This document shows, in pieces, positions 17,598 to 18,242 of a stretch of 64,000 bases of DNA; within the stretch, counting starts at the first letter, position 1; every line of letters starts with the position of its first letter. Location: the NCBI RefSeq assembly GCF_058153355.1, contig NZ_CM177019.1. One strand, 5' to 3'. A model generated the notes under the pieces. The model saw only the letters and a program-made list of their open reading frames with translations, searched no databases and was not told the DNA's origin. The position numbers were made by a program, and so were the translations under genes.

Positions 17598-18242
17598 AAT
17601 CAGCATTCACGTATCAGGAAGAGTTAAGGGTACAAGGGGTACTCGATGGCGGTCTATATTTCACGACTAACGCCATTTCAAGAAAGAAGTGTGGTGGGTG
17701 GTTTCGAATGAGGGCTGGTGTTTTGGTACGTGGCACGCCACTGCAATGTATTTATCCATCAGTACTCATTCAAAAGTACCTGGAAAAAATGCCCGCTATG
17801 CCAAGCGGGCAAATTGCTTACATGTGGAATTAAGTAATTAACGATAAAGCCAGAGTATTATCATTTATTATACCCATTCATTTAATCAGGTTAATTACTC
17901 AAATCACTGAACTATTCTCTGTTCGCTCACTTATGCTGAGTGAGTACCACGACCAATGTATGTAGAACAATGCCGTAGAGTAAGGATGAAATGTCTCTGC
18001 CACGCCTTAAACATCTACTACTGACTAGAACCGCCGTCGCATGCAGAAGAGTCTTGTGAGCGTTACAGGAGTCTGGCTTTGCTCATTAATCAACGCTATT
18101 TAGATATAAATTTCTAACACTCGAAAAATGATTTTCACTAATAAATTATAACGGGTGGTTTTTATCATACAGCGAAATAACCTTTTGTTTATTAAATTTA
18201 ACATTCCTGTGCTAAATTAATTAAAAGTACCATGTATAGCAT

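Follow-up and report, generated by a model that had tools for sequence, protein, structure and literature searches.

A conserved hairpin beside the tRNA gene ileY of Escherichia coli, the possible terminator of an unannotated small RNA

Hfq-dependent base-pairing small RNAs (sRNAs) of the enterobacteria, such as RybB, MicA and RydC, possess their own promoter and an intrinsic terminator. RNAs of the 3'ETS-leuZ type form a second group, and consist of the 3' external transcribed spacer of a tRNA. The locus described here, an intergenic hairpin next to the tRNA gene ileY, shares features with both. Like RybB, MicA and RydC, the candidate RNA would be short (~70 nt), free-standing and intergenic, its A/U-rich, single-stranded 5' part is the most conserved, and it would carry a U-rich stretch, a G+C-rich hairpin and a 3' U tail. 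Unlike these sRNAs, it is a prediction from sequence, matches no Rfam family, has a tail of only six U residues and is seen only in E. coli/Shigella and Escherichia albertii; its layout resembles that of the Hfq-dependent sRNAs, which we take as a likeness rather than as membership of the class. Its likeness to the 3'ETS-leuZ type lies in a conserved structure on the 3' side of a tRNA gene, as the hairpin and a neighboring quasi-palindrome (HP1) fold well on the plus strand. In contrast to 3'ETS-leuZ, this structure begins ~100 nt after ileY, past a Rho site, with no plus-strand terminator following, and a plus-strand reading puts the homopolymer run on the wrong side. A third parallel is found in tandem intrinsic and Rho-dependent terminators (Adams et al., 2021, PMC7815308), since here too a hairpin and U tract are followed by a C-rich stretch and a Rho region ~75 nt downstream, with a convergent tRNA. 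It differs from such tandem terminators in the 40 nt that precede the hairpin, whose conservation is far greater than termination calls for.

The window, which is the whole stretch of 64,000 nt (64 kb) that was analyzed, represents the ileY region of E. coli, and the hairpin lies in the spacer between ileY and ypjCB. Window position x corresponds to position 2785859-(x-17500) of the K-12 chromosome (NC_000913.3), and the minus strand of the window is the plus strand of K-12. The ileY gene (17522–17597, plus strand), a tRNA-Ile with anticodon CAU according to RefSeq, is convergent with the candidate sRNA; ARAGORN calls the same interval tRNA-Met (CAT). The spacer from ileY to ypjCB measures 750 nt, with the intact ypjCB beginning at the ATG at 18348, and the ileY-ypjC interval of the K-12 RefSeq record is without any annotated feature. 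The spacer that holds the hairpin is single-copy per genome and present in 3111 of the 5426 complete E. coli genomes (92–99% identity); its absence from the other 2315 (43%) indicates that the element is dispensable. One of 40 genomes listed has an annotation over the spacer, a 'hypothetical protein' that overlaps ileY. In strain HB-Coli0 (L006, 145–429), a 94-aa 'hypothetical protein' (WP_001347906.1) overlaps ileY and crosses the conserved block, and the tRNA is left unannotated; this protein is probably a spurious gene call.

A sequence-only reading of this region had reported the inverted repeat GCCCGC…GCGGGC next to an A run, and both are present in the plus strand as A6 (17784–17789), T17790, GCCCGC (17791–17796), TATGCCAA (17797–17804) and GCGGGC (17805–17810). 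The pairs T17790-A17811 and T17797-A17804 lengthen the stem to 8 bp and leave a 6-nt loop, so that the plus-strand form is TGCCCGCT-ATGCCA-AGCGGGCA (17790–17811), with the A6 before it. The same reading had interpreted the repeat as a terminator of the minus strand, which our analysis bears out. On that strand, the stem-loop UGCCCGCU-UGGCAU-AGCGGGCA (17790–17811; 8 bp, 6 G-C, 6-nt loop) is followed directly at its 3' side by a U6 tract (17784–17789) that does not vary among 74 E. coli and 9 E. albertii sequences, and the RNA hairpin of the window allele (17794-C) has a predicted dG of -15.0 kcal/mol. A consensus terminator scan hits the minus strand at this place (TGCCCGCTTGGCATAGCGGGCA then TTTTTTCCAG; 8 pairs, 6 G-C). 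With the criteria set strictly (8 Watson-Crick pairs, 6 or more of them G-C, a loop of 3–8 and 6 or more T among the 8 bases that follow), the hairpin is the single match on both strands of the 64-kb window, compared to a mean of 0.01 matches per window expected by chance (100 dinucleotide-preserving shuffles). It has the G+C-rich stem of ~5–14 bp and the loop of 3–8 nt of an intrinsic terminator, and the U run directly 3' of the stem is found on the minus strand, as the plus strand carries AAAUUGCUU there. Judged by its sequence, the hairpin with U6 is a canonical leftward intrinsic terminator.

We estimate the probability that the hairpin is the terminator of an unannotated sRNA gene of ~67 nt at roughly one half. 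The candidate as a whole (17784–17851, minus strand; ~67–68 nt with its predicted start) would have the sequence GGCUUUAUCGUUAAUUACUUAAUUCCACAUGUAAGCAAUUU-UGCCCGCUUGGCAUAGCGGGCA-UUUUUU. Its 5' part, GGCUUUAUCGUUAAUUACUUAAUUCCACAUGUAAGCAAUUU (17812–17851, minus strand; 40 nt), is A/U-rich, ends in AAUUU before the terminator and is invariant in both species. In the predicted fold, the 5' part folds weakly and the 3' part comprises, in order, the U-rich stretch, the hairpin and the U tail, as expected of an Hfq-binding module, with six U at the low end. The sequence-only reading had placed the source of the terminated transcript in 17.82–18.24 kb. A source on that side of the hairpin is retained here, in the form of a far shorter unit that would start at ~17851.

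Conservation within E. coli was assessed with 11 complete-genome sequences and 68 metagenome loci, which gave 57 unique sequences among 74 of full length; as the anchor used to retrieve the metagenome loci lies 40 nt away from the hairpin, the retrieval did not favor sequences that contain it. Across these 74 sequences, the interval 17781–17851 is invariant except for one SNP, and 17800–17849 shows zero variation. Nucleotide diversity (pi) amounts to 0–0.02 over 17700–17855, and to 0.03–0.11 in most of the flanks. The sole common polymorphism in the block affects the fifth stem pair at 17794, where 36 of the 74 sequences have C and 38 have T. K-12 and O157 carry 17794-T, and all nine E. albertii loci carry C. 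In the minus-strand RNA, the T allele replaces this pair by a C.A mismatch and weakens the hairpin to -8.8 kcal/mol; in the plus-strand RNA, it gives G.U pairing.

For the comparison between species, the orthologous locus of E. albertii was located through its YgaQ homologue (60% identity), and nine E. albertii loci were examined. Homology with the window extends from the tRNA to ~17919. Identity is 0.89 in the 3' half of ileY (17560–17597), 0.40 with 37 gap columns in the adjoining spacer (17598–17696) and 0.86 in HP1 (17697–17780), and reaches 0.97 (69/71) over the U tract, the hairpin and the 5' region (17781–17851). The U tract, the hairpin and the next 40 nt are thus conserved above the adjoining tRNA gene. 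The two mismatches in this interval are at 17803 (A>G in E. albertii, in the hairpin loop) and at 17781 (past the U tract); the candidate RNA itself has a single difference between the species, located in the loop, and all nine E. albertii loci are identical across 17800–17849. On the promoter side, identity is 0.68 (17864–17919). The right-hand neighbor in E. albertii is a pair of ykgM/ykgO paralogs and not ypjCB, and the retention of the module despite a different neighbor indicates a self-contained unit. In E. albertii (L080, 4390–5400; L082–L084 and L096–L100), the ykgM/ykgO genes (L31/L36 paralogue) lie immediately upstream of the module and are transcribed in the direction of the candidate sRNA, with a terminator-like inverted repeat of their own in between; in K-12, ykgM/ykgO is found at another chromosomal place.

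The same comparison points to a promoter. A -10-like GATAAT (P2; 17857–17862, minus strand) lies in a stretch that is fully conserved between the species (17857–17863, 7/7, identity 1.00); the next five nucleotides (17852–17856) agree at one position only (1/5, identity 0.20), and conservation is complete again from G17851. This order, a conserved -10 followed by a variable discriminator and by conservation from the predicted +1 (G17851/G17850), is suggestive of an own promoter. A candidate -35 is present 17 nt upstream of GATAAT (17880–17885, minus strand; TTAAAT in E. coli, TTACAT in E. albertii), and appears weak, as a poor match to the consensus. The best consensus promoter of the window strain is an alternative, P1 (TTAACC-16-TATAAT; 17867–17894, minus strand; scan score 10/12), but its -10 is not conserved and reads CATGAT in 15 of the 57 unique E. 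coli sequences and TACAAA in E. albertii. A 5' hairpin that pairs AAUGAUAA with UUAUCGUU is possible; this stem would need a start upstream of 17864, too near to TATAAT, so that we read GATAAT as the -10. In the proposed mechanism, leftward transcription would start ~6–7 nt downstream of GATAAT (17862–17857) and produce an RNA with the 40-nt A/U-rich 5' part, AAUUU, the 8-bp G+C-rich hairpin and the U6 tail. This RNA may accumulate as a discrete species, base-pair in trans and bind Hfq. Polymerase that escapes the hairpin would enter a C-rich, G-poor stretch, where Rho would halt it before it yields antisense ileY. A duplex scan of the candidate sRNA against the mRNAs, covering the 41 translation-initiation regions of the window, gave no pairing better than that of shuffled controls.

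The degree of conservation also bears on the idea that the hairpin is a functionless relic, left over either from a leftward gene since lost, as its terminator, or from an island that decayed at the ileY att site, as its end. Consistent with this, ileY is an integration hotspot: metagenome contigs and the E. albertii locus L082 diverge within the tRNA, an integrase is present by the att core, and a P2-like prophage remnant adjoins ileY in another strain, which lacks the region. Moreover, several genes in the vicinity are decayed in K-12 (pinH, ypjA and the split ypjC/ypjB). A neutral relic should, however, diverge like the flanks (40–68%), yet 97% identity is kept; phage or plasmid similarity is absent, and the module is positioned on the chromosomal side of the att core. 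We therefore regard a relic as very doubtful. The spacer was not found in plasmid and phage collections, mislabelled chromosomes aside, there is no paralogue of the region within the window, and the tRNA 3' end is not duplicated. On the basis of the single copy, the missing phage or plasmid similarity and the missing paralogue in the window, the end of a repeat or mobile element was rejected. The stretch GCTTACAT..AAGTAA presumably resembles the core of an ERIC repeat; this identity was dropped as the region is single-copy.

Apart from a small RNA, the sequence-only reading had suggested a small protein gene. It had noted that 17.82–18.24 kb contains no ORF of at least 60 aa, which holds, the longest minus-strand ORFs there measuring 34 aa. 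We listed the minus-strand ORFs of at least 8 aa over 17760–18360, and none of those that end at the hairpin has a plausible Shine-Dalgarno sequence or otherwise usable ribosome binding site. No hydrophobic ORF, as would be expected of a type I toxin, was found either. The ORF that comes closest to supporting a minus-strand small protein gene, with the hairpin at its end or in its leader, has 30 codons and begins 25 nt past the U tract (ATG at 17759); over its first 22 codons, comparison with E. albertii CP117650 shows 4 synonymous and 4 non-synonymous codon differences. Its start codon is lost, however: O157 and one other lineage have ATA in its place, 8 of the 9 E. albertii loci have ACG, and the ORF was rejected; in E. 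albertii, an in-frame TGA is located just upstream of the ACG. A protein-coding origin of the hairpin is consequently highly improbable. A plus-strand ORF of 41 codons (17708–17833) stays open, yet was likewise rejected with 10 non-synonymous against 1 synonymous differences. Of the two suggestions, the small RNA is now the better supported, through the conservation and a conserved -10 at the right distance, and the small protein is rejected for lack of a usable ORF.

Between ileY and the terminator lies HP1 (17697–17780), an 84-nt quasi-palindrome with invariant outer arms GAATGAG/CTCATTC. HP1, the hairpin (17790–17811) and a third stem (17812–17839) could together form the 3' trailer of ileY, that is, a structured plus-strand RNA (or single-stranded DNA) serving for example as a processing or stability element or as a 3'-ETS-like RNA, to which the A6/T6 run would be incidental. 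In E. coli, HP1 folds better as plus-strand RNA (-36.6 kcal/mol, z -5.0, 7 G.U pairs) than as minus-strand RNA (-23.8 kcal/mol, z -2.85), and the consensus fold of eight sequences shows the same preference (-56.9 for plus versus -34.1 for minus). Approximately ten one-sided differences between E. coli and E. albertii in HP1 retain plus-strand pairing via G.U and produce C.A mismatches on the minus strand; the 17794 SNP likewise keeps plus-strand pairing by G.U. This strand preference is the chief argument for a plus-strand element. In addition, ~20% of ileY transcription gets past the Rho site in K-12 (30 versus 154 reads). Against a trailer it must be held that the two strands of HP1 fold about equally in E. 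albertii, which makes the asymmetry specific to E. coli, that these substitutions leave the minus strand richer in C and poorer in G, an effect also expected from rut-site selection or from strand-biased mutation, and that the HP1 structure was predicted from the very sequences under comparison. No plus-strand hairpin is followed by a U tract, and Rho ends ileY transcription ~28 nt past the tRNA in K-12, where a Rho region was mapped on that strand (PMC7815308). Membership of the tRNA 3'ETS RNAs was rejected on these two grounds, the lack of a plus-strand terminator and the Rho region 28 nt after ileY. A trailer also leaves unexplained why conservation stops at 17851, beside a conserved -10 of the opposite strand. 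All in all, we consider it rather unlikely as the explanation of the hairpin. It is compatible with the sRNA, as HP1 could serve ileY and the hairpin the sRNA, and two convergent units, HP1 with the ileY side and the hairpin with U6 ending a leftward sRNA, make up the simplest combined picture. In one E. albertii strain (CP117650), HP1 has become a perfect 17-bp inverted repeat that the other eight loci do not have; this looks like one clustered, template-switch-like event, and as a strain-specific feature the perfect palindrome was set aside as independent evidence of covariation.

The minus strand of the interval is transcribed in K-12, weakly and up to a Rho-dependent site. DirectRNA-seq with and without bicyclomycin identified an 'orphan' Rho region at position 2785647 (+) (score 3.9, p 1.6e-6; Adams et al., 2021, PMC7815308, supplementary file 2). 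This position equals ~17712 on the minus strand of the window, ~75 nt past the hairpin, and coincides with a rut-like stretch that is C-rich and G-poor in composition (17690–17745, minus strand). In 800-nt windows at 2785647, untreated cells gave 55 reads upstream and 19 downstream, and bicyclomycin-treated cells 114 and 154 (PMC7815308); as downstream reads exceed upstream reads in the treated cells, the T-allele hairpin of K-12 leaks. The best reading of the terminator and the Rho site together is an intrinsic stop with Rho as a back-up that protects ileY. The terminator was not seen by 3'-end mapping: Term-seq of K-12 MG1655 in three growth conditions reports no 3' end at the hairpin (27855xx) on either strand (PMC7815308, supplementary file 1). 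Since the region is poorly expressed in K-12, which moreover carries the weakened 17794-T allele, this negative result is no test of the allele of the window.

A further possibility is that the element is an insulator only, an orphan terminator that, together with Rho as a back-up, shields ileY from antisense transcription, in which pervasive leftward transcription from the A+T-rich, H-NS-bound upstream region of ypjCB is stopped and the short transcript has no function. The region has a G+C content of 28–40% and many promoter-like sites, in a number that is within chance. Genomic SELEX reported binding of RpoD and H-NS between ypjC and ileY and an RpoS peak near window position 18111, neither of which resolves the small promoter. 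A stem-weakening allele at a frequency of ~50% and K-12 datasets in which no stable RNA was detected fit an insulator as well. Nevertheless, 40 invariant nucleotides upstream of the hairpin in two species and the conserved -10 exceed what an insulator needs, and the module is present in E. albertii, where ypjCB is missing from the locus. An insulator without a functional RNA is, in our view, unlikely.

The arguments against the sRNA itself come in part from the same strain. No such RNA appears in the K-12 Term-seq data, in the RIL-seq-based sRNA predictions for K-12, which have no entry for the region, or in the portions of the K-12 Hfq-CLASH tables covered here, which contain no entries for the ileY/ypjC region. 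About half of E. coli carry 17794-T, and the K-12 allele leaks; 43% of the complete genomes lack the region, the -35 is poor, and both the adjacent HP1 and the change at 17794 favor plus-strand pairing. If the sRNA is expressed, it would be a lineage-restricted sRNA added at a tRNA integration hotspot, and a regulator overlooked through the weakened allele of the laboratory strain in an H-NS-silenced region. If it is silent, the conservation still demands an explanation. In either case, a 67-nt segment has been left without annotation or Rfam family in E. coli, the most heavily annotated bacterium. A more far-reaching view, which we offer as a speculation with little chance of being correct, is that ileY is flanked by a convergent module composed of an H-NS-silenced, Escherichia-specific sRNA and a plus-strand HP1 in the 3' trailer of the tRNA. 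Were this true, convergent transcripts or an sRNA acting in trans would tune the decoding of a rare codon (ileY is the AUA-decoding tRNA-Ile2) or horizontally acquired, A+T-rich genes.

Searches with the covariance models of the curated Rfam families (release 15) found no family above its gathering threshold except tRNA. The best sub-threshold scores were 12–22 bits, against thresholds of 41–99, with E-values of 0.5–5; these matches were of a generic type, sRNAs with a terminator, and all but one were on the minus strand with ends at 17777–17784. With scores this far under the thresholds, membership of an Rfam family was rejected. A full-text literature search with the hairpin sequence returned no occurrence. 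The searches made found no orthologue of the module beyond E. coli/Shigella and E. albertii: the protein search with the translated block returned these two species and no other, the search of viral contigs yielded E. coli-like proviruses and nothing else, and the genome-contig search with YpjCB gave a single match, a K-12 contaminant contig. Homologues of YgaQ are limited to E. coli/Shigella and E. albertii, and those of YpjCB to E. coli/Shigella. The 2.8-kb contig L011 (DEQI01000374.1), which stems from a metagenome-assembled genome named 'Planococcaceae bacterium UBA3370', covers ileY-ypjC and differs from the window as K-12 does; it is almost certainly a contamination of the Planococcaceae bin with laboratory E. 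coli.

Several minor observations concern the genes on either side. In the 3' half of ileY, four positions differ between E. coli and E. albertii, and within E. coli TCGCTTGG and TCGTCCGG both occur. Several metagenome contigs and one E. albertii contig leave the window sequence inside ileY, from the anticodon loop leftwards, and in E. albertii L082 (1–1300) a P4-type integrase adjoins the retained 3' half of ileY; the divergence point within ileY (~17550–17597) marks a ~48-nt att core at which islands insert into ileY. To the left, ygaQ (alpha-amylase family; 14709–16962, minus strand) is split into three ORFs of 196, 277 and 267 aa; the gene is a pseudogene in K-12, and strain MFDS1022581 has a whole gene of 750 aa. 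To the right, ypjCB (18348–19802; DUF5507+DUF5508) is intact in the window and divided into ypjC and ypjB in K-12. YpjCB is highly variable in E. coli (78–94% aa identity, >400 clusters) and often a pseudogene, a pattern that suggests diversifying selection or decay. In annotated relatives, ypjCB starts at the ATG equivalent to 18348. At ~18326, the window misses one A that is present in all compared strains (CATGT-GACATT versus CATGTAGACATT), as a result of which a TAG is lost and the upstream frame is joined to the gene, giving an ORF of 519 aa from the ATG at 18243.
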